A DNA stretch of 26,987 nucleotides from Thermodesulfovibrionales bacterium (GCA_044450345.1 JBIOIY010000043.1:1-26987); one strand, 5' to 3'; shown: positions 1-9,460, numbered from the stretch's first letter. The notes: generated by a model not told the origin, from the letters alone. Numbers and translations: made by a program.

Positions 1-1
1 A

Positions 2-151
2 AACAATGACCATGAAATGTACGAATGTCTTGCGAAACTGAAGGTGTGGCGAGTTGAAAACCTCATGTCACCGACTGGAATGGATAGGTTTGCACAGGAT
101 ATCAAAAAGACAAAATCTAAAAAGGACGGGACGGAAAGCGGAGGGTCTTAG
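2..151 (+). CDS. 3' end of an unknown CDS entering from the left edge (partial)
   Basis: Frame starting at base 2 is open (NNDHEMYECLAKLKVWRVENLMSPTGMDRFAQDIKKTKSKKDGTESGGS) to TAG at 149-151; no recognisable motif. Confidence 0.4.
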   Translation, partial: NNDHEMYECLAKLKVWRVENLMSPTGMDRFAQDIKKTKSKKDGTESGGS

Positions 152-175
152 CAGTAAGATGGCCGAGCTGCCGAT
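123..175 (+). ncRNA. Truncated (3' half) c-di-GMP-I/GEMM riboswitch aptamer
   Basis: GGACGGGACGGAAAGC-GGAGGGTCTTA-GCAG-TAAGATGGCCGAGCTGCCGA aligns with the copy at 3586-3663; the 5' strand of P2 and its GNRA loop are absent. Confidence 0.7.
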
Positions 176-283
176 GGATGGCCCTTTGTATGTTCGGCCA
201 ATATATTTAGTGAAAGGAGGTTTTGTGAGCGGCGGTAGTTGATCGAATTAACCAGGAATAATCGAAAGAAAGGAGAAAACGTC

Positions 284-607
284 ATGAAATATTTAGCACA
301 GGCATCGTATACAGCCGAGGCTTGCGCGGCTATGATCAAGAACCCGCAGAACCGCGGTGAGATGGTACGGCAGGTTATTGAAAAACTCGGAGGACGCTTC
401 GAAGGCTTTTGGTTCGCATTCGGGGATTATGATCTAGCAACTATTTTTGAGTTGCCTGATAACGTAACTGCAGCAGCCTTTTCTCTGGCCGTCTCCGCGG
501 GCGGTGCTCTTAAAGCCTTGAAGACTACCCAGTTGATGACAGCTGAGGAGGCAGTTGAAGCTATGAAGAAGGCGGCAAAGATAGGATACCGACCACCGAC
601 CAGTTAG
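284..607 (+). CDS. GYD domain-containing protein
   Basis: MKYLAQASYT...EKLGGRFEGFWFAFGDYD pattern; SD AAGGAG upstream of ATG 284. Confidence 0.85.
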   Translation: MKYLAQASYTAEACAAMIKNPQNRGEMVRQVIEKLGGRFEGFWFAFGDYDLATIFELPDNVTAAAFSLAVSAGGALKALKTTQLMTAEEAVEAMKKAAKIGYRPPTS

Positions 608-623
608 AAAAGGAGATTCACGG

Positions 624-701
624 GGAAGGTTCTCATTTCAATTTCTTTTAAAGCAAGGAGGAATTTAAAATGCGTAGTAAAAAACAAAAATGGTTGATGT
701 C
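624..701 (+). repeat. Direct repeat A, copy 1 (leader, SD and first ~10 codons of the IPT/collagen gene)
   Basis: Closely matches 4525-4603 (TTCTCATTT..ATTTCTTTT.AAGCAAGGAGG...AAAATGC.TAGTAAAAAACAAAAATGGTTGATGTC). Confidence 0.9.
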
Positions 702-1654
702 TTTGGTTGTGATCCTCGGGATGTTTTGTACTTTGTCATCCGCATTGGCAGCCAGTATTAATGAGGCGAGTGTTGATCTTTCAAATCAGTTGCTCACCAT
801 CTCGGGGCAGAATTTTGGGACAACTCCATATTCTGTGCTCCTTGGAAACAGCACGCTTACTGTTCAGAGCTGGGCGGATACCCAAATAATCGCAAATCTG
901 CCTGCGGGTGTCACTCCAGCCACTTACCCGCTGACAGTAACCTCTAGTAAAAGTAAAGACGATGCGACTTCGGCGGTAACGATCGGGGCGCAGGGTCTCC
1001 CGGGACCGACGGGGCCACAAGGGCCTGTTGGCGCAATAGGTCCACAGGGTCCTCCAGGTCCTCAGGGACCACAAGGTACAGCAGGGCCTGCAGGTGCAGC
1101 AGGGAGCAACGGGACCACAGGGCCCAGTAGGCCCATCAGGGCCTCAAGGGCCAACAGGAGCAACGGGGCCACAGGGTAGTCCCGCAGATGTCATCGGAAG
1201 CACCATTGCTATGGGCTCCGCGGACCAGAATGGAAAAGTCATTTCTGGCAACAATTGGGCGCTCTCCCAGCAATATGCCAATCCCGCGACGGGCGAAGAG
1301 GATACAGTCATTGCCTTAACTGATATGACACAGAATACGACCCACCCAATCAACTGCCAGGTAGCAACCACCGCAGTTAGCGGATTATTCTGGGCTATTG
1401 TATATGGAGGGTGTTACCAACAGAACTACTCGGGAGGATGCAACTACTACGACTGTTATAGGCAGCTTGGAGGACAGGTGTCATGGCATTATATTACAAG
1501 GTGGAAGCAGGATAATATATATACGCACGCGGGACACTGGGAGCTTGTCGTATCCAGCATGACCAGCACGCCCGCCACCGATCCATGCAACAACCTATCT
1601 TACGAGTACTCTGCGCCCTACCAAATACCGTTTTCATTCATATGCGCCTACTAA
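670..1654 (+). pseudogene. Secreted IPT/TIG-domain, collagen-like repeat protein split by a +1 frameshift (ORFs 670-1179 and 1094-1654)
   Basis: Signal peptide, Ig-like IPT segment (LTISGQNFG...[12 protein letters not shown]), and Gly-X-Y repeats that continue in the next frame; removing one G at 1102-1104 gives a single 327-aa ORF. Confidence 0.8.
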
Positions 1655-1666
1655 CAATGGTAAAAG

Positions 1667-1850
1667 CTATGGGTTGTGCATGGTCGTTTCGCAGGCGATT
1701 CCTCTTACCCAACTTATCCACCGCCGCACATACAATCCAAGCTGGGAGGGGCCGCAAGGCCTCCTCCCACTCTTGCTCATAAAGCCGGACCGCACGTGCA
1801 AGAAACTTCTCTATCGTCTTTACAGCCACAGAAAGCCCGTTAGGGAAGAA
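1667..1850 (-). pseudogene. C-terminal remnant of a group II-like reverse transcriptase
   Basis: Minus strand reads FFPNGLSVAVKTIEKFLARAVRLYEQEWEE, then after a 1-nt shift near 1760 PCGPSQLGLYVRRWISWVRG..., stop at 1669-1667. Matches my recollection of the RLYEQ...LGxYVRRW tail of a bacterial RT family. Confidence 0.65.
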
Positions 1851-2009
1851 CGTCCTGAAAAGTGACCTTTCTGCCTTTTCTTTTCCGCAGATTCATCTTT
1901 GCGAATCCGTATCCAATCTGTAACCTCCCCCGTGGTAAGTTGATTACAGATACAAAATAAGAAAGAGCCGTCAATATAGTCTCTCTCTCAATAAAAGGAG
2001 GATAAGACA

Positions 2010-2423
2010 ATGGATAAGAAAGGCAATGTAAGGTGGGGTTGGCTGAAGTTCATGTATGTATACACTATTATCGGAGCGGGAGGGTTCGGGCTGGGAATAA
2101 TTCTCATTCCTCAGGTGATACGCTCAGTATTCAGGTTCCCCGGTCAGGACCCTGTCGTATTTGGTATTTTAGGAAGCTCATACATCGCCTTTGGGCTAGT
2201 GTCGATATTAGGTCTGCGGTCTCCCCTGAATTTTGTTCCCGTTCTATTACTGCAGCTATGCTACAAGGTGATATGGTTTATAGCTGTCGCGGCGCCTCTA
2301 CTTGTTTCGGGCGGCCTTCCTATTCATGCGGCATTGCTTCTTGGAATATTTGTGACGTACATCATCGGCGATCTCATTGCTATCCCGTTTTCGTATGTCT
2401 TCTCAAAACAGTCCGGATCGTGA
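2010..2423 (+). CDS. Hypothetical integral membrane protein (about 4 TM helices)
   Basis: Strong SD AAGGAGG; four hydrophobic segments. Confidence 0.8.
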   Translation: MDKKGNVRWGWLKFMYVYTIIGAGGFGLGIILIPQVIRSVFRFPGQDPVVFGILGSSYIAFGLVSILGLRSPLNFVPVLLLQLCYKVIWFIAVAAPLLVSGGLPIHAALLLGIFVTYIIGDLIAIPFSYVFSKQSGS

Positions 2424-2435
2424 AAGGAGGATGAA

Positions 2436-3296
2436 ATGAAAAAGGCGCTGATTGTTTATTTTTCTCAAGGGAAAACGAACATGCGCGTAGCGGACGCAAT
2501 AAGTGCAGGCCTCCGCGAGGCGGGCCATCAAATTGACCAATGGAACCTTAAGGACGGACAGCCGCCCGATCCCCGCAAGTATGATCTGTTTGGCATCGGG
2601 TCGCCAACATATTACTTTCGTCCGCCCTTTAACGTGACGGACTATGTCAACAGTCTGCCCGAACTGGCAGGCCTCCCGGCCTTTGTCTTTGTGCTGGGAG
2701 GTACCCATTGGGGCAACACCGGCAACAAAATACGACGCGCTCTGACCCTAAAGGGAGCGCGAGAAGTTGGTTATTTCCATTGTCTCTCAGCATCGTACTT
2801 CCTGGGTTATATGAAAGTAGGATACCTCTTTTCGGCGGATCACCCTACGGCGGACGATTTGGCCCGGGCTGAAGCTTTCGGGCGCGAGATCGCGGGCAGG
2901 CTTGCCGGCAAGCAATATGTCAGACCAGAAAAAGACCCGGCGGCGGCAATGCTCTATCGCATAGAACGGTTTGTGTTAAATCGCTTTTTGGTAAAACAGA
3001 TTTACAGCAGGTCCTTCAGGGTGAACGCAAGATGCAGCAATGACTGCGACCTCTGCGAGAAGCAATGTCCTGTCAAGAACATTTCCAGGGATAAGCATGG
3101 ACGTCTGGTGTGGGGCAGGGACTGCCTGCTATGCCTGAGTTGTGAGAAGAATTGTCCCGAAGATGCCATCACCTCTTTATTGACTGGCCCCCTTTTTCGG
3201 CCGGTCATGCTTTTAAATACGTACCTTGGATCCCGAGACCCGTCGTTTGATTACGCCAGGGTGGTCCACAGGAAAGGTCAAACGCATCGCCTGTGA
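2436..3296 (+). CDS. EFR1-family flavodoxin/ferredoxin fusion protein
   Basis: N-terminal flavodoxin-like (IVYFSQGKTN, GIGSPTY) plus C-terminal CxxxCxxCxxxCP and CxxCxxCxxxCP 4Fe-4S motifs. Confidence 0.85.
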   Translation: MKKALIVYFSQGKTNMRVADAISAGLREAGHQIDQWNLKDGQPPDPRKYDLFGIGSPTYYFRPPFNVTDYVNSLPELAGLPAFVFVLGGTHWGNTGNKIRRALTLKGAREVGYFHCLSASYFLGYMKVGYLFSADHPTADDLARAEAFGREIAGRLAGKQYVRPEKDPAAAMLYRIERFVLNRFLVKQIYSRSFRVNARCSNDCDLCEKQCPVKNISRDKHGRLVWGRDCLLCLSCEKNCPEDAITSLLTGPLFRPVMLLNTYLGSRDPSFDYARVVHRKGQTHRL

Positions 3297-3389
3297 TAAG
3301 TTGCCTGTAACAAGGGCCACACCACATTGCCAAAATGAGAACATTGGTAAAGTGTGGGCATGATATACATCTACGAATAGAGGCTGGAT

Positions 3390-3611
3390 TTGAAAAACTA
3401 CATCATTCGCATTTATCGCCAGGAAAACGACAACCCGAAAAAGATTGTCGGGGTAGTGGAGGAGCCGGAGATCGAAGGGAGGAAGGCATTCACCAATCTC
3501 GACGAACTGTGGGGGATACTGAACCCTGTGAAAGCGGCAAGAGTAGTGCGGGAAACAAAGAGAAGCAGGAAGCAGGGTCTTTTGACTTTGATAAAGCCAA
3601 ACCCTCCGTGA
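3390..3611 (+). CDS. Small hypothetical protein (MKNYIIRIYR...GVVEE...AFTNLDELWGIL type)
   Basis: TTG start after GAGG; protein-like pattern; its middle is duplicated at 4333-4417. Confidence 0.65.
   Translation: MKNYIIRIYRQENDNPKKIVGVVEEPEIEGRKAFTNLDELWGILNPVKAARVVRETKRSRKQGLLTLIKPNPP
3468..3552 (+). repeat. Direct repeat B, copy 1
   Basis: 85 bp matching 4333-4417 with 5 transition mismatches; first 54 bp identical. Confidence 0.95.
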
Positions 3612-3663
3612 GAAGGGGGCGGAAAGCGGCGGGTCTTCAGTAGAGATGGGCGAGCTGCCGAAG
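3586..3663 (+). ncRNA. c-di-GMP-I (GEMM) riboswitch
   Basis: P1 CTTTG/CGAAG; GCCAAACC-CTCC-GTGA-GAAG-GG P2 with GNRA loop; CGGAAAGC junction; P3 GTCTT/GAGAT; 3' TGCCGA. Confidence 0.85.
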
Positions 3664-3699
3664 GATGCTATTCTTGTGGTGTTGCTCGGTCTTTTTATT
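3648..3699 (+). terminator. Putative riboswitch expression-platform terminator overlapping the aptamer 3' side
   Basis: GGGCGAGC (3648-3655) can pair with GCTCGGTC (3684-3691), followed by TTTTTATT. Confidence 0.5.
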
Positions 3700-3765
3700 C
3701 TGGTGTGCTTGTCGGTTTTTTTGACGGCGAGATTTTTGTGAACGGGTACGAAAGGGGGGAACATC

Positions 3766-4326
3766 ATGAATGCCCTTTTAAAGTTCTTTTTCGTCATCAT
3801 TGTCGTCAGCCTTCCGATTCCGTGTGATGCCGGACCTGTCCTCTCAGATGAAGAAGCGCCCGGGATTATCGGAGCGCATTTTGGATATCCGATCGTTGTC
3901 TCCACACAGATCACTTTCAAGGGGAAGAGCCGGGAAATGTTGGATTATCTGAAAAGGACAGGGTATATTGTCGACTCGCCTGCTCAAAGCTGCTGCGGCG
4001 ACTTTTACGCAACTGCCGAAAAAGGAAAGCCGCACTTTGGAGATTTCGTAAAATACTTTTCGCATGGTGATCTGTACGTTGACTGCGTCTATGCGAAGAA
4101 AACAATTAAATCCATTGAGACGATTCTTCTCGATACGAAGAAGAGAGGTGCGACGGTTGTATATATCGAGAGCCTTGAGCCGGATGAACCGGTATACTCG
4201 GAAGTATTTAGGAAGAGTCGGGAGGGCGCACAGGAAATAGACTTTAATAAAACACAGAGGATAAAAGTGAAAATGAGATATGACGGCAAGGGGTGGCGGG
4301 TTGAAGGGAAGCGGGATGGCAAATAA
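3766..4326 (+). CDS. Hypothetical exported protein
   Basis: Signal-peptide-like N-terminus, purine-rich SD, 186 aa, no recognised domain. Confidence 0.7.
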   Translation: MNALLKFFFVIIVVSLPIPCDAGPVLSDEEAPGIIGAHFGYPIVVSTQITFKGKSREMLDYLKRTGYIVDSPAQSCCGDFYATAEKGKPHFGDFVKYFSHGDLYVDCVYAKKTIKSIETILLDTKKRGATVVYIESLEPDEPVYSEVFRKSREGAQEIDFNKTQRIKVKMRYDGKGWRVEGKRDGK

Positions 4327-4332
4327 TAACCT

Positions 4333-4417
4333 GAGATCGAAGGGAGGAAGGCATTCACCAATCTCGACGAACTGTGGGGGATACTGGACCCTGTGAAAGC
4401 AACAGGAGTAGCGCGGG
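4333..4417 (+). repeat. Direct repeat B, copy 2 (5'-truncated copy of the 3390-3611 ORF)
   Basis: Begins 6 nt after the stop of 3766-4326; encodes EIEGRKAFTNLDELWGILDPVKA. Confidence 0.95.
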
Positions 4418-4524
4418 GTTTCACCAGCCATGCCGGTTCGGGAAGTCATGCCGAAAGAAGGAGAGTTGCTGAAAAAACTTGCATCTGCATAAAGGGGATG
4501 GAAGTAGTCGGGGGTATATATGCA

Positions 4525-4628
4525 GGAAAGATTCTCATTTAAATTTCTTTTGAAGCAAGGAGGGAATTAAAATGCTTAGTAAAAAACAAAAATGGTTGAT
4601 GTCGTTATTTCTCTCCACGCTTGCGTAA
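4525..4628 (+). pseudogene. Direct repeat A, copy 2: truncated start of an IPT/collagen paralogue ([18 protein letters not shown], 4572-4628)
   Basis: Matches 624-701, then diverges and stops after 18 codons. Confidence 0.8.
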
Positions 4629-4757
4629 AAACCACCGAAAGCTACGCTGTTATCTTGACCTAAACCCGCCCTATTCATTACTCTAAACAGTCATTTCGAT
4701 TTTTTTTAAACTTAAACCGGGCCGCAGGCAAATGGTCCATTATTCCGGAGGAAAGAT

Positions 4758-6443
4758 ATGCGGTTATCAAATATGTTCATCCCTACACTAAGAGACGTGC
4801 CGGCAGACGCCGAGGCGATAAGCCATATCCTGATGTTGCGTGCCGGGTACGTGCGGCAGCTGGCATCGGGCCTATATATTTACCTGCCTCTTGGCTGGAG
4901 GGTCATGAACAGGATCAATAAAATCATCAGGGAGGAGATGGACGCGATAGGAGCCCAGGAAGTGTCGATGCCGGTACTCCATCCCGCCGAGATCTGGCAG
5001 CAGACGGGCAGATGGGACACGATCGGGGACGAGATGTTCCGTCTAAAAGACAGGACCGGTCGTGACATGTGCCTCGGCATGACACACGAAGAGATCATGA
5101 CCTGGCTTGCGTCGAGGGAGATACGCTCCTATCGGGACCTTCCCCAGGTCTGGTATCAGATACAGACGAAGCTGAGGGACGAGGCAAGACCGAAGAGCGG
5201 GATACTCAGGACGAGGGAGTTCATCATGAAAGACAGCTACAGCTTCGATGTCTCAGAGGAGGCCCTCGAAAGAAATTATACGCTCCATGCCGACGCCTAC
5301 CACAGGATATACGAGAGGTGCGGACTGAGCTTCTTCATGGTCGAGTCCGACCCGGGCATGATGGGAGGCGCGGTGTCCCATGAATTCATGGCCCCGAGCC
5401 CTGCGGGCGAAGACCAGGTGGCCCTGTGCAAGGGCTGCGGATATTCCGCCAACGTAGAACTCGCACTTTCGGTGCCCCTTAAAAATAATCCTGCCGACTG
5501 GCAGACCGAAGAGGTGCATACTCCTGAAAAAAGGACGGTGAAGGAGGTCTCGAATTTCCTGAAACTTTCCCCGTCTTATTTCCTGAAGAGCATCCTCGTT
5601 ATCTCAGACAAAGGGCCTGTGCTCGCACTGGTGCGCGGCGACCAGGAACTCCATGAAAAGAAACTCGCAAAGGTGATCGGCGACCACAGGCCGGCACAGA
5701 AGGCCGAGGTGAAGGAAATTCTCGGCGTGGAGGCCGGGTTCATCGGCCCGATGGGGCATACGATCAGGATAGTCTCCGACGAATCGCTGAAAGACGGCCT
5801 GTTCGTGTCCGGCGCGAACAAGCCACACTATCATATCAAGGGGATAATGGCCGGGCGCGATTTTCAGGCAGAATGGCACGATATCCATATCGCAAAAGAA
5901 GGTGATCATTGCGTCAAGTGCGGGGGCCCGCTTCAGATCGAGCGTGTCATAGAGATAGGCAATATCTTCAAGCTCGGCACAAAATATTCGATTCCTCTGA
6001 AGGCGGTCTTCCTGGATGAGAACGGGCAGGAAAAGCCGGTCATTATGGGGAGCTACGGCATCGGTCCTGCCAGGATCGCAGCAGCTGCCATCGAACAAAA
6101 CAACGACAAGGACGGCATGATATGGCCGGAAAGCATATCTCCGTTCGATGTAGAAATACTGCTGCTGAACATCAAGGACGCAAAGACGATGGAGACGGCC
6201 GAGGCGCTTTACAAAGATCTTACGGGGAAAGGCTTTGAAGTGCTCATGGACGACCGCGACGAACGGGCCGGAGTAAAGTTCAAGGACGCGGACCTTATCG
6301 GGATACCCGCTCAGATCGTCATCGGCGAGAAGAACCTGAAGGAAGGGTTTCTGGAACTCAAGAAAAGAAGGACTAAAGAGGTGTCGAGGGTGAAAGTTGA
6401 AGAAGTCGTGGAAACATATACCTCATCAGTCGTGAGTTCCTGA
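4758..6443 (+). CDS. proS: Proline--tRNA ligase (bacterial type with INS editing domain)
   Basis: MRLSNMFIPTLRDVPADAE, RDEARPKSGILRTREFIMKDSYSF, IEIGNIFKLGTKYS, MGSYGIG, DDRDERAGVKFKDADLIG. Confidence 0.98.
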   Translation: MRLSNMFIPTLRDVPADAEAISHILMLRAGYVRQLASGLYIYLPLGWRVMNRINKIIREEMDAIGAQEVSMPVLHPAEIWQQTGRWDTIGDEMFRLKDRTGRDMCLGMTHEEIMTWLASREIRSYRDLPQVWYQIQTKLRDEARPKSGILRTREFIMKDSYSFDVSEEALERNYTLHADAYHRIYERCGLSFFMVESDPGMMGGAVSHEFMAPSPAGEDQVALCKGCGYSANVELALSVPLKNNPADWQTEEVHTPEKRTVKEVSNFLKLSPSYFLKSILVISDKGPVLALVRGDQELHEKKLAKVIGDHRPAQKAEVKEILGVEAGFIGPMGHTIRIVSDESLKDGLFVSGANKPHYHIKGIMAGRDFQAEWHDIHIAKEGDHCVKCGGPLQIERVIEIGNIFKLGTKYSIPLKAVFLDENGQEKPVIMGSYGIGPARIAAAAIEQNNDKDGMIWPESISPFDVEILLLNIKDAKTMETAEALYKDLTGKGFEVLMDDRDERAGVKFKDADLIGIPAQIVIGEKNLKEGFLELKKRRTKEVSRVKVEEVVETYTSSVVSS

Positions 6444-6610
6444 CTACCGGATTCATGCCTCGCACAATAAAGGCAGTCGAGGTTGCAACGCCCGGTTATA
6501 TATTGCGTGGCACGGAGTGGAATCCTTGCCCCGAGAATGACTTTCAGTGTCCGTGGATTGCTTTCCGTTTGAAGTCTTCGAGAAATATATTTACCTAGTT
6601 GGCATAATGG
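6419..6610 (-). pseudogene. N-terminal remnant of a radical SAM protein
   Basis: Minus frame reads ...LGARIPLRATQYITGRCNLDCLYCARHESGSQELTTDEV (CX3CX2C at 6487-6464); no in-frame start codon; the frame then runs antisense into proS. Confidence 0.75.
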
Positions 6611-6611
6611 G

Positions 6612-6643
6612 GCGAGAAGGCAGGCACTTGCCTGCCTTCTCGC
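6612..6643. terminator. Perfect 15-bp inverted repeat (terminator or stabilising hairpin)
   Basis: GCGAGAAGGCAGGCA-CT-TGCCTGCCTTCTCGC followed by TTT on +. Confidence 0.7.
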
Positions 6644-6652
6644 TTTGGAATA

Positions 6653-6940
6653 TCAATACCCGCCTGCAGCCTTCTTTTTCTTTTGGGTGACTTTTGTCGC
6701 TTTCTTCTTGCCACTAACTTCCTTGTATTCTACAGTCACGTGATCTCCCACCTTCACATCTTTAACCAGGGAACCCGTTTCACAATCGAAGCCCACATCG
6801 ACTGTTCCACTCTTTAGTGTGAGCGTACCTTTTATAGCATCTACCGCGATAACTTCTCCAGACATGTCTTTCGCGACCGCCACCCCAAAAAAGGTTGCCA
6901 GCACAAAAGCAATAATAAGAAATGACATTGCAGCTTTCAT
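6653..6940 (-). CDS. Small secreted beta-rich (OB-fold-like) protein with a Lys-rich tail
   Basis: SD AAGGAGGTG before ATG 6940; signal peptide; GEVIAVD...LTL...DVKVGDHVTVEY pattern. Confidence 0.85.
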   Translation of the reverse strand: MKAAMSFLIIAFVLATFFGVAVAKDMSGEVIAVDAIKGTLTLKSGTVDVGFDCETGSLVKDVKVGDHVTVEYKEVSGKKKATKVTQKKKKAAGGY

Positions 6941-6995
6941 ATGTCCACCTCCTTTCATTATGGTCTATGATGCCCAACTCTTTAAACGTATAATA

Positions 6996-7023
6996 AGTCT
7001 ACCACAGTAATAACATTTGTCAA
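6996..7023 (-). promoter_or_regulatory. Sigma-70-type promoter for the 6653-6940 gene
   Basis: TTGACA-N16-TAGACT with an extended TG on the minus strand. Confidence 0.65.
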
Positions 7024-7061
7024 TCGGCTTACTCTCGGCTTACTCTCGACTTACTCTCGAC
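7024..7061. repeat. 11-bp tandem repeat (TCGRCTTACTC, about 3.5 copies), likely regulator binding array
   Basis: TCGGCTTACTC TCGGCTTACTC TCGACTTACTC TCGAC, abutting the -35 box. Confidence 0.85.
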
Positions 7062-7203
7062 CCTTCTTTTTTTAATGAGACAAGTTCAGTCATATATAAA
7101 TTCCAGATAGCGGATATCATATTTCTATATATTTTTTGTCGGCGTCATTCCTGATCGCTATAAAAAAATGCTATTAATCAGAGAGTTTTATTTTCGTTCG
7201 TTG

Positions 7204-7219
7204 TGGTACGTTTATTGCT
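7204..7219 (+). promoter_or_regulatory. Sigma-54 (-24/-12) promoter
   Basis: TGGTACGTTTATTGCT fits TGGCAC-N5-TTGC (GG-N10-GC); AT-rich upstream. Confidence 0.6.
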
Positions 7220-7236
7220 GTCCTAATTCAGCTAGC

Positions 7237-7602
7237 ATGGTTAAAATATTAATCGTAGATGACCAATCTTCTATCCGGGAATTACTCTCACATATATTGA
7301 GAAAGGTCTCTACCGTCATCACAAGCCACAGTCTGGAAGATGCGCGGACCGCGCTTTCGAATCACGCATTCGATCTTGTCATTTCAGATCTCCGGCTGAA
7401 CAGGGCGAAGGGGATGGAAGGGTTCGAGCTCCTCAGTTACGTGCGGGAAGTGAGTCCTCAGACAAAGGTCATAATTATGTCCGGCTTCGGCACTGCAGCG
7501 GTCAAAAATGAAGCATATGAGTTAGGCGCAATGTGTTTTCTTGAAAAGCCGATAAATATCTCTCATCTATATTCAAAGGTCCAGTCGCTTAATAGCCAAT
7601 AG
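7237..7602 (+). CDS. Single-domain response regulator (receiver)
   Basis: KILIVDD, DLVISD, GFELL, IIMSG, FLEKP motifs. Confidence 0.9.
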   Translation: MVKILIVDDQSSIRELLSHILRKVSTVITSHSLEDARTALSNHAFDLVISDLRLNRAKGMEGFELLSYVREVSPQTKVIIMSGFGTAAVKNEAYELGAMCFLEKPINISHLYSKVQSLNSQ

Positions 7603-7609
7603 GCACTAT

Positions 7610-9460
7610 CTACTTATCTGCTGCCCCGGTATGTCCCCCTTCTCCGGCCTCCGGCGTACCTTCTTCTCTACCCTCGACCTTTGCGGCAGCATCTTCCTTA
7701 ACGGCCCCGTCTGTTCTCGGCCGCCTTGACCTCCCCCTTCGACGGTATCTGTCCCTTGGCTTGCGTTTATGCTGGACCTTCTCCTGACTTTTTTGTTCTT
7801 CCGCTGCCTTGGCCTCACCCTTTTCCAGGCCTTCAGTTTCAGCACTCTCAGCCTCTGCTTCGTGCCGCTCCTTTCCCCCTGCTTTGGACTCCGCCCTTCC
7901 GCCGGTCTCATCCCTGGTCTTGTCCCTTTCCCTCCCCCTGTACTTTTGAGGGTGCTCCTCTGCGGACTTTTCATGTTCCCGGGCCTTTATCTCGCCCTCG
8001 TTCTTTTCCGTCTCTATGACAGGCTGCCCTATTAACTTTCTGTCCGCAAGAACGGTGATCTTGACCCCGTATTCTTTTTCGGCGCTCCGGATATCTTCGA
8101 GTTTGCTGTTTACCAGGTAGTTCATGCTTTCAATAGGGAGGCGGCAGGTTATGCCCTTGATGCCTCCTTTTGACGCAATCGTAAGGACTTCCCTGAACGC
8201 GGATATCGCGATCATCTCTTCGTTCCTCACAATCCCCAGTCCGCCGCAGGCTTCGCACTTTTTGTTCACCGTCTCGAAGTAGGCAGGTCTCATCCTCTCC
8301 CTCGTCATTTCGACGATCCCGAACTTCGAGATGTTCGTTATCTCGGCATGCGCCTTGTCGGATTCCATCGCATCCATCAGCCTGGTTTCGAGTTCCCTCC
8401 TGTTCTTGGAAGAAATCATATCGATAAAATCGATCACGATCAGTCCGCCGATGTCCCTCAATCTGAGCTGCCGTGCAATCTCATCGGCCGCTTCAAGGTT
8501 CGTCCTCAGCGCCGTAGACTCGACGTTCTCCTCCTTCCTGGACCTCCCGGAATTCACATCGATTGCAGTAAGGGCCTCTGTCTTGTCGATGACCACATAT
8601 CCCCTGGAAGGCAGGTGCACATACCTCTCGCTTAATTTAGCGATCTGGTCCTCTATATTGTGAATCGAGAAGATCGGCTTCTTGTCTTTGTAGAACTTGA
8701 TGTTGATCTTGCGCCATGGCACGGTCTTTCTCAGGAACTCCTTTGTTCCTCTGAATGCCTCCTGGTCGTCGATGAGTACCTCACTCACGTCGGAGGTCAG
8801 ATAATCCCTCACCGTCCTTACCGCAATGTCCTGCTCCTTGTAAATAAGGGCCGGTGCGGGAGCCTTTTTTGCCTCGGCCTGGATCTTGGTCCAGAGTTTC
8901 ATAAGATATTTCAGGTCGTTTTCGAGGTCTTCACCGGTCTTGTCGCTTCCGGCCGTCCTAAGGATAAACCCCATCTTTTTGGGAAGCTTAAGGGCGTGGA
9001 AAATTTCCTTGAGACGCTCCCTGTCGTCCCGGTCCTCGATCTTTCTCGATATCCCCACCCTCTCCTGGCCGGGCATCATGACGATGTATCTGCCCGGGAT
9101 CGAGATATAGGTCGTAAGGCTTGCGCCTTTAGTGTCCCTCTCGTCCTTCTCTACCTGCACGATCAGTTCCTGCCCCTTCTGCAGGTCCTGCACCCGGGGT
9201 CTTTTGCCCTGGGGCGTATTGACGATAAACTCCGGCTTTATCTCCCGCAGCTGCAAGAAACCGTGCTTCTTCGGTCCGAAATTCACAAATACCGCCTGCA
9301 GCCCCGGTTCGATCCTCGCAATGACGCCTTTATAAATGTTCCCCTTGAGATGCTCCTTCCCGGACCCCTCGACATAGAAGTCGACGAGTATGTCGCCGTC
9401 GACAATAGCGACCCTTTTTTCCTCAGGATACATCGCGTTTATCAATATCTTCTTTTTCAT
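7610..9460 (-). CDS. rne: Ribonuclease E/G family, with a charged low-complexity C-terminal tail
   Basis: GNIYKG S1 domain, TEALTAIDVNSGR, IARQLRLRDIGGLIVIDFIDM, CEACGG Zn-link. Confidence 0.93.
   Translation of the reverse strand: MKKKILINAMYPEEKRVAIVDGDILVDFYVEGSGKEHLKGNIYKGVIARIEPGLQAVFVNFGPKKHGFLQLREIKPEFIVNTPQGKRPRVQDLQKGQELIVQVEKDERDTKGASLTTYISIPGRYIVMMPGQERVGISRKIEDRDDRERLKEIFHALKLPKKMGFILRTAGSDKTGEDLENDLKYLMKLWTKIQAEAKKAPAPALIYKEQDIAVRTVRDYLTSDVSEVLIDDQEAFRGTKEFLRKTVPWRKINIKFYKDKKPIFSIHNIEDQIAKLSERYVHLPSRGYVVIDKTEALTAIDVNSGRSRKEENVESTALRTNLEAADEIARQLRLRDIGGLIVIDFIDMISSKNRRELETRLMDAMESDKAHAEITNISKFGIVEMTRERMRPAYFETVNKKCEACGGLGIVRNEEMIAISAFREVLTIASKGGIKGITCRLPIESMNYLVNSKLEDIRSAEKEYGVKITVLADRKLIGQPVIETEKNEGEIKAREHEKSAEEHPQKYRGRERDKTRDETGGRAESKAGGKERHEAEAESAETEGLEKGEAKAAEEQKSQEKVQHKRKPRDRYRRRGRSRRPRTDGAVKEDAAAKVEGREEGTPEAGEGGHTGAADK

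Follow-up and report, generated by a model that had tools for sequence, protein, structure and literature searches.

Introduction

Riboswitches for c-di-GMP (cyclic diguanosine monophosphate) of type c-di-GMP-I (GEMM-I) are described for collagen-binding or collagen-like adhesin genes of Bacillus thuringiensis (Bc2/Cap, CbpA) and Clostridioides difficile (CD2831). According to the accessible parts of the reports (PMC4933901, PMC7423583, PMC6447587), they share the clan, the position in the leader of a secreted gene and the terminator platform with two elements, R and R', in the DNA discussed here. This stretch, referred to as the window, comprises 26,987 nucleotides (nt) from Thermodesulfovibrionales bacterium (GCA_044450345.1 JBIOIY010000043.1:1-26987) and is contig C43 from position 1 in an assembly of 3.19 Mb, 86 contigs and 91% completeness (genome G000). 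Its first 4,628 nt, located upstream of proS, hold besides R and R' a small gene named S, an adhesin gene and the remnant of a reverse transcriptase (RT) gene. In comparison to the known adhesin switches, the intact copy R lies inside an operon, overlaps the stop codon of S and precedes a secreted protein without known family, whereas the adhesin-side copy R' is eroded; the host belongs to a Nitrospirota lineage.

The RT remnant is of the UG4 type (UG/Abi RTs, class 2). As far as the accessible parts of the literature state, UG4 RTs are associated with predicted fimbrial proteins and show no enrichment in defence islands (PMC9226505), and UG4 is the only non-intron RT with a hint of mobility, and the 3' flanks of its near-identical copies are unrelated (PMC2602772). 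RT_UG4 is matched by full-length relatives of the remnant, which adjoin surface-protein genes in line with the first of these reports, whereas the window keeps only ~65 C-terminal codons. Three features that do not appear in these accessible parts are observations of this analysis: the convergent stop-to-stop arrangement, cargo of the collagen-like or PEP-CTERM kind, and a c-di-GMP riboswitch at the side of the cargo.

Similar to integrons, the locus combines conserved parts with variable, promoter-less-looking cargo that differs between relatives. In contrast to them, the locus has no integrase and no attC-like inverted repeats at cargo borders, the cargo has its own regulatory leaders, and the junctions look like deletions. 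The RT beside the 3' end of a surface-protein gene and the Lcl_C domain in some UG4 cargo recall diversity-generating retroelements (DGRs), but the RT is UG4 and not of the DGR class, and no template/variable pair with adenine-biased mismatches was found in the window. With SARP/AfsR activators, a regulator connected with S shares the C-terminal winged helix (weak Trans_reg_C matches) and the BTAD domain, and two 11-nt repeats are found in the -35 region. Here the order is ATPase-TPR-SARP, compared to SARP-NOD-TPR in AfsR; the hosts are Nitrospirota and Thermodesulfobacteriota, and the genes are S-headed secreted-protein operons, not antibiotic clusters. The accessible part of PMC10936776 gives the SARP promoter design as direct repeats 11 (or 22) bp apart with the 3' repeat 8 bp from the -10 element, whereas this distance is ~10 nt here.

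A preliminary description of the region proposed a gene-capture platform at which unrelated genes are repeatedly swapped in behind a cyclic-dinucleotide switch. We consider it rather probable that regulatory heads which can be reused form an accessory mosaic here, prone to recombination and abutting the proS promoter, and that the region is not a dedicated capture platform.

Results

The small gene, the riboswitch, the adhesin and the RT had been regarded as one four-part backbone, which is not borne out by other genomes. Among 31 S loci in species-representative genomes of Nitrospirota and Thermodesulfobacteriota, 28 were scanned with Rfam and none of these has a riboswitch after S; S in turn is absent from all 80 UG4 RT loci of a metagenome scan. 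In one of the 28, L052, a riboswitch comes after the cargo gene. Searching all 31 S loci with nhmmer added riboswitches only in L050 (~750 nt downstream of S) and L026 (~5 kb upstream), neither of them beside S. The adjacency of S and riboswitch was also observed in a close metagenomic relative, with P0005 being 71% identical to S and its tail matching the riboswitch region of the window read in another frame, as well as in run X2. Judged by these comparisons, the backbone is two independent modules, A (riboswitch, adhesin, UG4 RT) and B (operator, S). The features of module A and the truncated open reading frame (ORF) ahead of it are as follows, with lengths of proteins in amino acids (aa).

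1..106, plus strand: X', 3' remainder of a small ORF truncated at the contig start; a paralogue on contig C37 comes after the S/Fe-S operon there
99..180, plus strand: R', eroded c-di-GMP-I aptamer, 3' two-thirds intact, 5' stem lost; ORF X' ends inside it
160..210, plus strand: terminator-like hairpin that uses the aptamer 3' strand, U-tract interrupted (-20.8 kcal/mol, z -2.5)
284..607, plus strand: GYD-domain gene (PF08734, E 1e-24)
623..704, plus strand: L, complete leader copy with the adhesin ribosome-binding region and first 12 codons (repeat with L')
670..1654, plus strand: secreted TIG and collagen-like adhesin in two frames, 670-1179 and 1094-1654 (ORFs; Pfam TIG, Collagen)
1667..1880, minus strand: UG4-class RT relic, ~residues 260-318 and beyond of a 333-aa protein, frameshift near 1760

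A search for longer proteins with 1641-1892 (minus strand) found RVT_1 proteins. The relic is 68% identical to P0225 over 57 residues (E 1e-21); with P0229 (333 aa) the identity is 83% over 30 residues (269-298) and 60% over 20 residues (299-318) in a shifted frame. P0229 itself matches PADLOC RT_UG4 at E 1e-111 (positions 4-305 of 307) and scores no more than 111 bits against NCBIfam's model for group II intron RTs, for which the cut-off is 300. Many metagenomic loci match the stretch 1690-1845 with the 3' ends of their RT genes, at 80-90% nucleotide identity. That an RT remnant converges on the adhesin, as described before, is borne out by the P0225 and P0229 tail matches opposite the adhesin 3' end. 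The relic comprises the last ~65 codons, ~20% of an RT. The fingers/palm and the YxDD motif are absent from it, and because the matched part comes after the YMDD motif, no catalytic part is left. Since the piece lies outside the RVT_1 model, Pfam, NCBIfam and tblastn with the two RVT_1 genes of the genome gave no match; the fragment had no PADLOC match either.

Two collagen-like genes of genus G010 carry the same RT tail, starting at the same RT residue ~260. By this common starting point, the truncation is old and came down together with the adhesin unit. A search with P0229 as query (E ≤ 1e-20) yielded no intact UG4 RT in the genome (91% complete) or in 40 relatives. The RT activity that the preliminary description considered possible is not supported by this result or by the frameshifted ~20% relic.

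The metagenome scan with P0229 gave 467 relatives, from which the 80 loci were kept; 51 of them have at least 500 nt beyond the RT stop and 33 at least 1.2 kb. A convergent ORF stops -80 to +300 nt from the RT stop in 46 of the 51, compared to four with the next ORF on the same strand and one with none. By a crude rule, 29 of the 46 convergent ORFs have a signal peptide; five of the 46 lack their 5' end, and wrong start calls account for several of the negatives. Collagen-like cargo was observed in 7 of the 51 loci, and Pfam Collagen matched 5 of 14 cargo proteins tested (L065, L070, L093, L107, L118); other cargo carries PEP-CTERM (L104) or Lcl_C (L091). Riboswitches were searched with Rfam on 11 loci and with an nhmmer profile on all 80. 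A c-di-GMP-I riboswitch above gathering on the cargo strand was found in L065, L070, L092 and L107, i.e. in 4 of the 33 loci that extend 1.2 kb or more past the RT. All three of riboswitch, collagen-like adhesin and convergent UG4 RT come together in L065, L070 and L107, while L093 has adhesin and RT without riboswitch, and L092 riboswitch and RT with other cargo.

The RT/adhesin junction of L065, L070, L093 and L107 aligns with that of the window (alignment A8), and the FSFIC-type motif with which the C-terminal domain of the window's adhesin ends is also present in these four loci. Because the same parts and the same junction are found in metagenomic UG4 loci, riboswitch, adhesin and convergent UG4 RT, with or without a small gene, make up a recurrent module, of which the window holds a dead copy. 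The expected co-occurrence of the parts elsewhere was confirmed for riboswitch, adhesin and RT in the three loci named and for S with adhesins in another genus, G011; it did not extend to a regular riboswitch at RT loci, given the 4 of 33. No adenine-biased repeat pair was present in those of the 80 RT loci that span at least 2 kb, and no repeat of the adhesin 3' part in 1-9000 of the window. In L118 an IS200-like gene (3067-3492, Y1 transposase-like by eye) interrupts the UG4 RT gene.

The adhesin changes frame near 1094-1130, inside the collagen-like repeat. All three traces of collagen adhesins in the genome are broken. On C37, the X paralogue is immediately followed by seven Gly-X-Y triplets that lack both a leader and a C-terminal domain (L001 6570-6827); this run is the third, almost wholly deleted collagen-like gene of the genome. 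The GYD gene has a homologue in G013 with similarity confined to the coding sequence.

Module B and the putatively riboswitch-controlled gene that follows it contain these features:

1863..1970, plus strand: E, conserved non-coding block with two 11-nt repeats (1904-1925) and a -10-like hexamer ~10 nt on; putative SARP-type promoter
2010..2423, plus strand: small membrane protein gene (ORF; 70% aa identity to G040)
2436..3296, plus strand: flavodoxin and 4Fe-4S protein, EFR1-family ferredoxin (NF038196, 96.9 bits; Pfam)
3390..3611, plus strand: S, small protein with a ~45-residue conserved core and a basic tail; stop codon inside riboswitch R
3587..3663, plus strand: R, complete aptamer of the c-di-GMP-I clan (61.1 bits on RF03167, c-di-GMP-I-GGC; gathering 59)
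3643..3700, plus strand: terminator hairpin that uses the aptamer 3' strand, then a U-run; expression platform (fold prediction)
3766..4326, plus strand: secreted protein gene, 186 aa, no known family, N-terminal hydrophobic leader

Relatives of S form 71 clusters in a word-indexed search; among 1.84 billion proteins there are 1878 representatives (50% identity) at E ≤ 1e-3 and 528 at ≤ 1e-10. S has no Pfam-A or NCBIfam model, and no description was found there or by a generic full-text query. Residues Y9, R10, P16, G21, E24, F34, D38, E39 and L40 are invariant (alignment A1), and the tail is variable and mostly basic. Pairwise differences at codon positions 1/2/3 amount to 0.24/0.17/0.60 (31 of 32 cores aligning without gaps), and by this pattern S is a genuine protein family with a core under purifying selection. 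The predicted fold consists of three strands and a helix, with a predicted local distance difference test score (pLDDT) of 66 overall and ~75-84 in the core. A Foldseek comparison with the PDB gave nothing at E ≤ 0.001, only weak HicB-like and dsRBD-like rows. The ESM Atlas returned unnamed clusters, one structural row of which led to PilZ fusions that were then confirmed by sequence. S is fused C-terminally to PilZ in 11 proteins (19.7-33.9 bits, five of them at or above the cut-off of 22.5), and further to a receiver domain, Usp and ADC in one protein each, the last of which may be a read-through call.

Across the 31 S loci the gene after S is nearly always a different one, usually for a secreted or giant surface protein. 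A STAND ATPase-TPR-BTAD regulator (~1040-1150 aa) is encoded directly upstream on the same strand in ~16 of the 31, and four others are without upstream sequence. In 23 of 31 loci, of which 19 have the core motif, the gap between regulator and S holds two direct repeats of 11 nt and, behind them, a -10-like hexamer. In comparison, a period-11 repeat occurred in 35 of 1156 random 300-nt windows (3%) and the core motif in one, and other periods (8-14 nt) were seen in 2-6 of the 31 S loci. This architecture fits the SARP promoter rule and would represent a putative, activator-dependent promoter.

In the window, block E stands upstream of the membrane-protein gene, not directly upstream of S, and the hexamer after its repeats is TAnnnT-like, ~10 nt past the 11-nt unit. 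E is 83% identical to C37:12473-12579 (alignment A5), where the paralogue has two identical 11-nt units. The genome has one true BTAD regulator, on C37, and two such operators, the one on C37 right behind the regulator. A genome-wide search with the operator pattern gave 3 matches, where chance would give 3.4. Taken by itself, the pattern therefore lacks specificity, and support for the two real sites comes from the similarity that extends around them. A complex prediction of S 1-60 with residues 200-1114 of the C37 regulator reached a score of 0.34, which is weak support, compared to 0.00 for the best of three controls; the runs agree in at least 97% of contacts, with a partner pLDDT of at least 70 (custom alignments). 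Of 157 solved complexes, only 18 reached the mark with a score of 0.60 or below, the range in which both passing mismatches (2 of 215) also lie, and no claim on binding is made from this value.

The aptamer of R (Rfam clan CL00126) shows few non-pairing marks, and both hairpins can pair. Its terminator design matches that of other riboswitches of the genome. With the terminator using the aptamer 3' strand, R would act as an ON switch in which ligand binding prevents the terminator. R' 99-175 scores 31.8 bits on RF01051 (gathering 35), with the first hairpin non-pairing at most positions; 123-178 is 93% identical to a riboswitch on contig C66. Since its U-run is interrupted and the aptamer cannot close, R' presumably no longer senses the ligand. 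Over the 3.2-Mb genome ~10 aptamers of the c-di-GMP-I clan are distributed, which share the terminator design; several precede proteins with signals of the twin-arginine (TAT) or Sec pathway. The protein encoded at 3766-4326 had no Pfam or NCBIfam match and gave unnamed clusters in the ESM Atlas.

Downstream of this gene, three short segments lead up to the proS promoter:

4330..4417, plus strand: S', 5'-truncated copy of S, codons 26-54 (repeat with S; junction bridged by X2 record 7)
4418..4524, plus strand: K, spacer between S' and the leader relic (no similarity found; fold unremarkable)
4525..4628, plus strand: L', adhesin leader relic with an 18-codon ORF at 4572-4628, cut off after 4606

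The preliminary description had each of three backbone parts twice, once complete and once truncated, and this is confirmed by three blastn repeat pairs. S and S' (3465-3552 vs 4330-4417) are 93% identical over 88 nt (E 1.5e-30), including 54 nt without any mismatch at 3468-3521; L and L' (623-704 vs 4525-4606) 82 nt at 90% (E 1.4e-24); R' and R (123-180 vs 3611-3667) ~55 nt at ~87% (E 7.6e-9). The pairs are real and far beyond chance. It is likewise correct that unrelated genes end at or inside these parts. ORF 2-151 follows its C37 paralogue to ~106 (X' vs C37:14518-14619, 89% nucleotide and 71% aa identity, alignment A2), then enters riboswitch-derived sequence and has its stop at 149-151 inside R'. 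The GYD stop (605-607) lies 16 nt ahead of L. Gene 3766-4326 ends with TAA, then a second TAA, 3 nt ahead of S' in the same frame. No integrase or attC had been seen in the region, and we agree: Pfam shows no recombinase family among the 11 ORFs of 1-4757, where the sequence begins at the contig start, and among 24 listed pairs no attC-type imperfect inverted repeat lies at cargo borders.

A second S copy is found only in the window and in G011 (2 of ~35 S loci). In G011, S stands between two TIG/collagen adhesin genes, in the tandem order adhesin, S, adhesin, S relic. As the order S'-K-L' matches this arrangement, it appears to be the relic of a unit with S ahead of an adhesin.

Contigs of related strains, 90-97% identical to the window, were obtained from four runs of four studies; the adhesin (641-1760) and most of the GYD gene are without such contigs, which is not evidence of absence. 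One X2 contig bridges 3517-4383. Both X1 and X2 span 4369-4603 and continue with 4602-4800; in between, where L' ends, they carry 63 and 316 additional nt, respectively. X2 (record 6) has E, 1845 extra nt, the membrane gene, 64 nt and S, and no ferredoxin gene. In X1, the tail of S is followed after 126 nt by the membrane gene and a ferredoxin gene reduced to its 5' part, which runs directly into 3742; there, gene 3766 is without riboswitch. The reported joints share no letters at the breakpoints ('both = 0'), pointing towards illegitimate rather than homologous recombination.

The comparison of the proS-adjacent locus across strains, which the preliminary description had suggested, showed these parts in a different order from strain to strain. 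Each of six congeners has its own content upstream of the proS promoter. The border of the conserved region is the following:

4651..4757, plus strand: proS promoter and 5' untranslated region (UTR); genus conservation starts at a -35-like hexamer (alignment A3, seven genomes)

By ORFs and Pfam, proS starts at 4758 and is followed by RNase E/G and ordinary genes. In G004, greA, pyrK and pyrD abut proS; in G000 these three genes are on C37 beside the STAND-TPR-BTAD regulator. Congener contigs frequently end upstream of proS, several of them breaking 0.5-2 kb upstream. The GC content across 1-4800 is 0.44-0.56 vs 0.51-0.57 in proS and rne, which is not decisive for foreign origin. No tRNA or tmRNA that could serve as integration site occurs in the window, and Rfam, searched to an E-value of 1, gave no match to parts of group II introns in 1-5000.

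Several observations were made around these borders. In G003 (L012, G003:C48 ~6171-6273 and 7625-7663), ~40 nt of the proS promoter are doubled as direct repeats. These enclose an insert of 1.35 kb that holds an XRE/ImmA-like gene and a gene for 133 aa, an arrangement that resembles an attachment-site (att)-type duplication at an insertion hot spot. L017 (G005:C13) contains at 7948-8034 the 5' end of a group II intron (Rfam RF02005, 61.7 bits), ~2 kb upstream of proS at a contig end, and between the intron end and proS an ORF resembling an RHS-type toxin tip (by eye) and a small membrane ORF. On C37 (L001 8510-8634, C37:16509-16633) lies a ~115-nt element with dozens of congener copies of up to 97-100% identity, especially in G003, probably a repeat similar to miniature inverted-repeat transposable elements (MITE) or repetitive extragenic palindromes (REP). 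In the window, three tandem 11-nt repeats (family D6, 7024-7059) precede a response-regulator gene at 7168-7602.

Discussion

Cargo varied among relatives wherever this was compared, i.e. in the 31 S loci, the 51 UG4 loci, the six proS congeners and near-identical strains. The swapping of cargo at this locus, as it was proposed earlier, is therefore real as an evolutionary pattern; a dedicated capture mechanism behind the switch was not shown. In our explanation, module A (99-1880), with riboswitch, GYD gene, adhesin and convergent UG4 RT, is dead here: the aptamer 5' stem is replaced by the end of ORF X', the U-tract broken, the adhesin frameshifted and about the last 20% of the RT left. Module B (1863-3611), with the SARP-type promoter, the membrane gene, the EFR1 ferredoxin gene and S, is probably driven by the STAND-TPR-BTAD regulator of C37, the only one of the genome, which has a paralogous operon directly downstream. 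R with its competing terminator probably lets transcription reach 3766-4326 when c-di-GMP is bound, and 4330-4628 would be left from an earlier unit of the G011 kind. The duplicated and truncated parts were most likely formed when paralogous units were duplicated, recombined unequally or illegitimately, and suffered deletions. Junctions would be flush with stop codons because selection removes deletions that cut functional genes.

Some points weigh against this explanation. The left end of the locus is missing, as the contig begins there, and faulty assembly of repetitive sequence could account for the frameshift of the adhesin. We infer promoter function, ON-switch logic, the order of events and selection at the junctions; activity, binding and logic are predicted. 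Two of the three truncated copies, R' and S', have lost their 5' ends and directly adjoin the gene before them, leaving no sequence in between, a pattern that abortive reverse transcription would also be expected to give. Further, UG4 loci with different cargo lose homology close to the RT stop, near the last RT codons (alignment A8), and L063 and L065 have a common left flank and different cargo to the right; in these alignments the breakpoints hint at a defined exchange point rather than random recombination. These observations would also suit capture by the RT, in which UG4 copies mRNA-shaped units (leader with riboswitch, coding sequence, 3' end) and inserts them beside the RT 3' end. R' and S' would then be abortive products and the window a burnt-out platform whose RT has since decayed. 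We regard this as improbable. It is in accordance with the variable convergent cargo that abuts the RT stop in 46 of 51 loci, with units that start with a 5' UTR element, with many RT loci being on short contigs and a high summed depth of the RT tail (~1761-1845) in run X8, which suggests many copies, and with the mobility hint for UG4 in the accessible part of PMC2602772. On the other hand, neither the genome nor the 40 relatives yielded an intact UG4 RT with P0229, and the single truncation point of three relics speaks for inheritance with the adhesin unit instead of local formation. L' is truncated at its 3' end, not at its 5' end, and with S in 0 of 80 RT loci, S' is a relic without link to the RT. 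Poly-A and target-site duplications were not seen, and the convergent pairing may equally reflect a functional partnership of RT and adhesin or RT insertion behind terminators. A far-reaching version, to which we give hardly more than a slight chance, would make UG4 RTs gene-capture engines that deposit retro-copies of surface genes convergently at their own 3' end, with the flush junctions and the 5'-truncated riboswitch as fossils of a platform whose RT is dead. Alongside this, S would be a c-di-GMP-linked STAND-SARP adaptor, occurring free, fused to PilZ or before a riboswitch.

Selected shuffling of cassettes, for which S, riboswitch and leader would serve as portable homology arms in the exchange of surface genes between paralogous loci or strains and thereby give surface variation, seems unlikely to us, though less so than capture by the RT. 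The perfect 54-nt run common to S and S', the ~10 riboswitch copies of the genome, the tandem arrangement in G011 and the different module order between strains would all suit it. Yet second S copies are rare (2 of ~35 loci), the strain joints without shared breakpoint letters point to illegitimate recombination, the copies differ by 7-13% and are thus not homogenised, and the products in the window are pseudogenes. We hold it for very improbable that repeats or junctions are chimeric joins of a metagenome-assembled contig. The window does start at a contig end inside a repeated ORF, the contigs of several congeners break upstream of proS as well, and neither the X'/R' junction (within ~120 nt of the contig start) nor the adhesin frameshift has independent contig cover. 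The divergence of 7-13% is, however, not that of collapsed duplicates, independent contigs of another study bridge 3517-4383 and 4369-4603, and the decay of R' is graded without a sharp join. An accessory mosaic formed by recombination next to the proS promoter, with two independent and reusable modules decaying and being reshuffled, is the simplest explanation and the one that we prefer.

Conclusion

The window is mostly wreckage, and its own physiological importance is probably small. The locus shows the reuse of regulatory heads before different secreted-protein genes as well as mosaic decay, which matters for the annotation of metagenome-assembled genomes. UG4 RTs are without known function, and the convergent pairing with secreted genes gives a context in which template and product can be sought. 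S stands at the head of operons that are preceded by a STAND-TPR-SARP regulator and by an operator that can be recognised, and its fusion to PilZ would tie S to c-di-GMP signalling in uncultured anaerobes.

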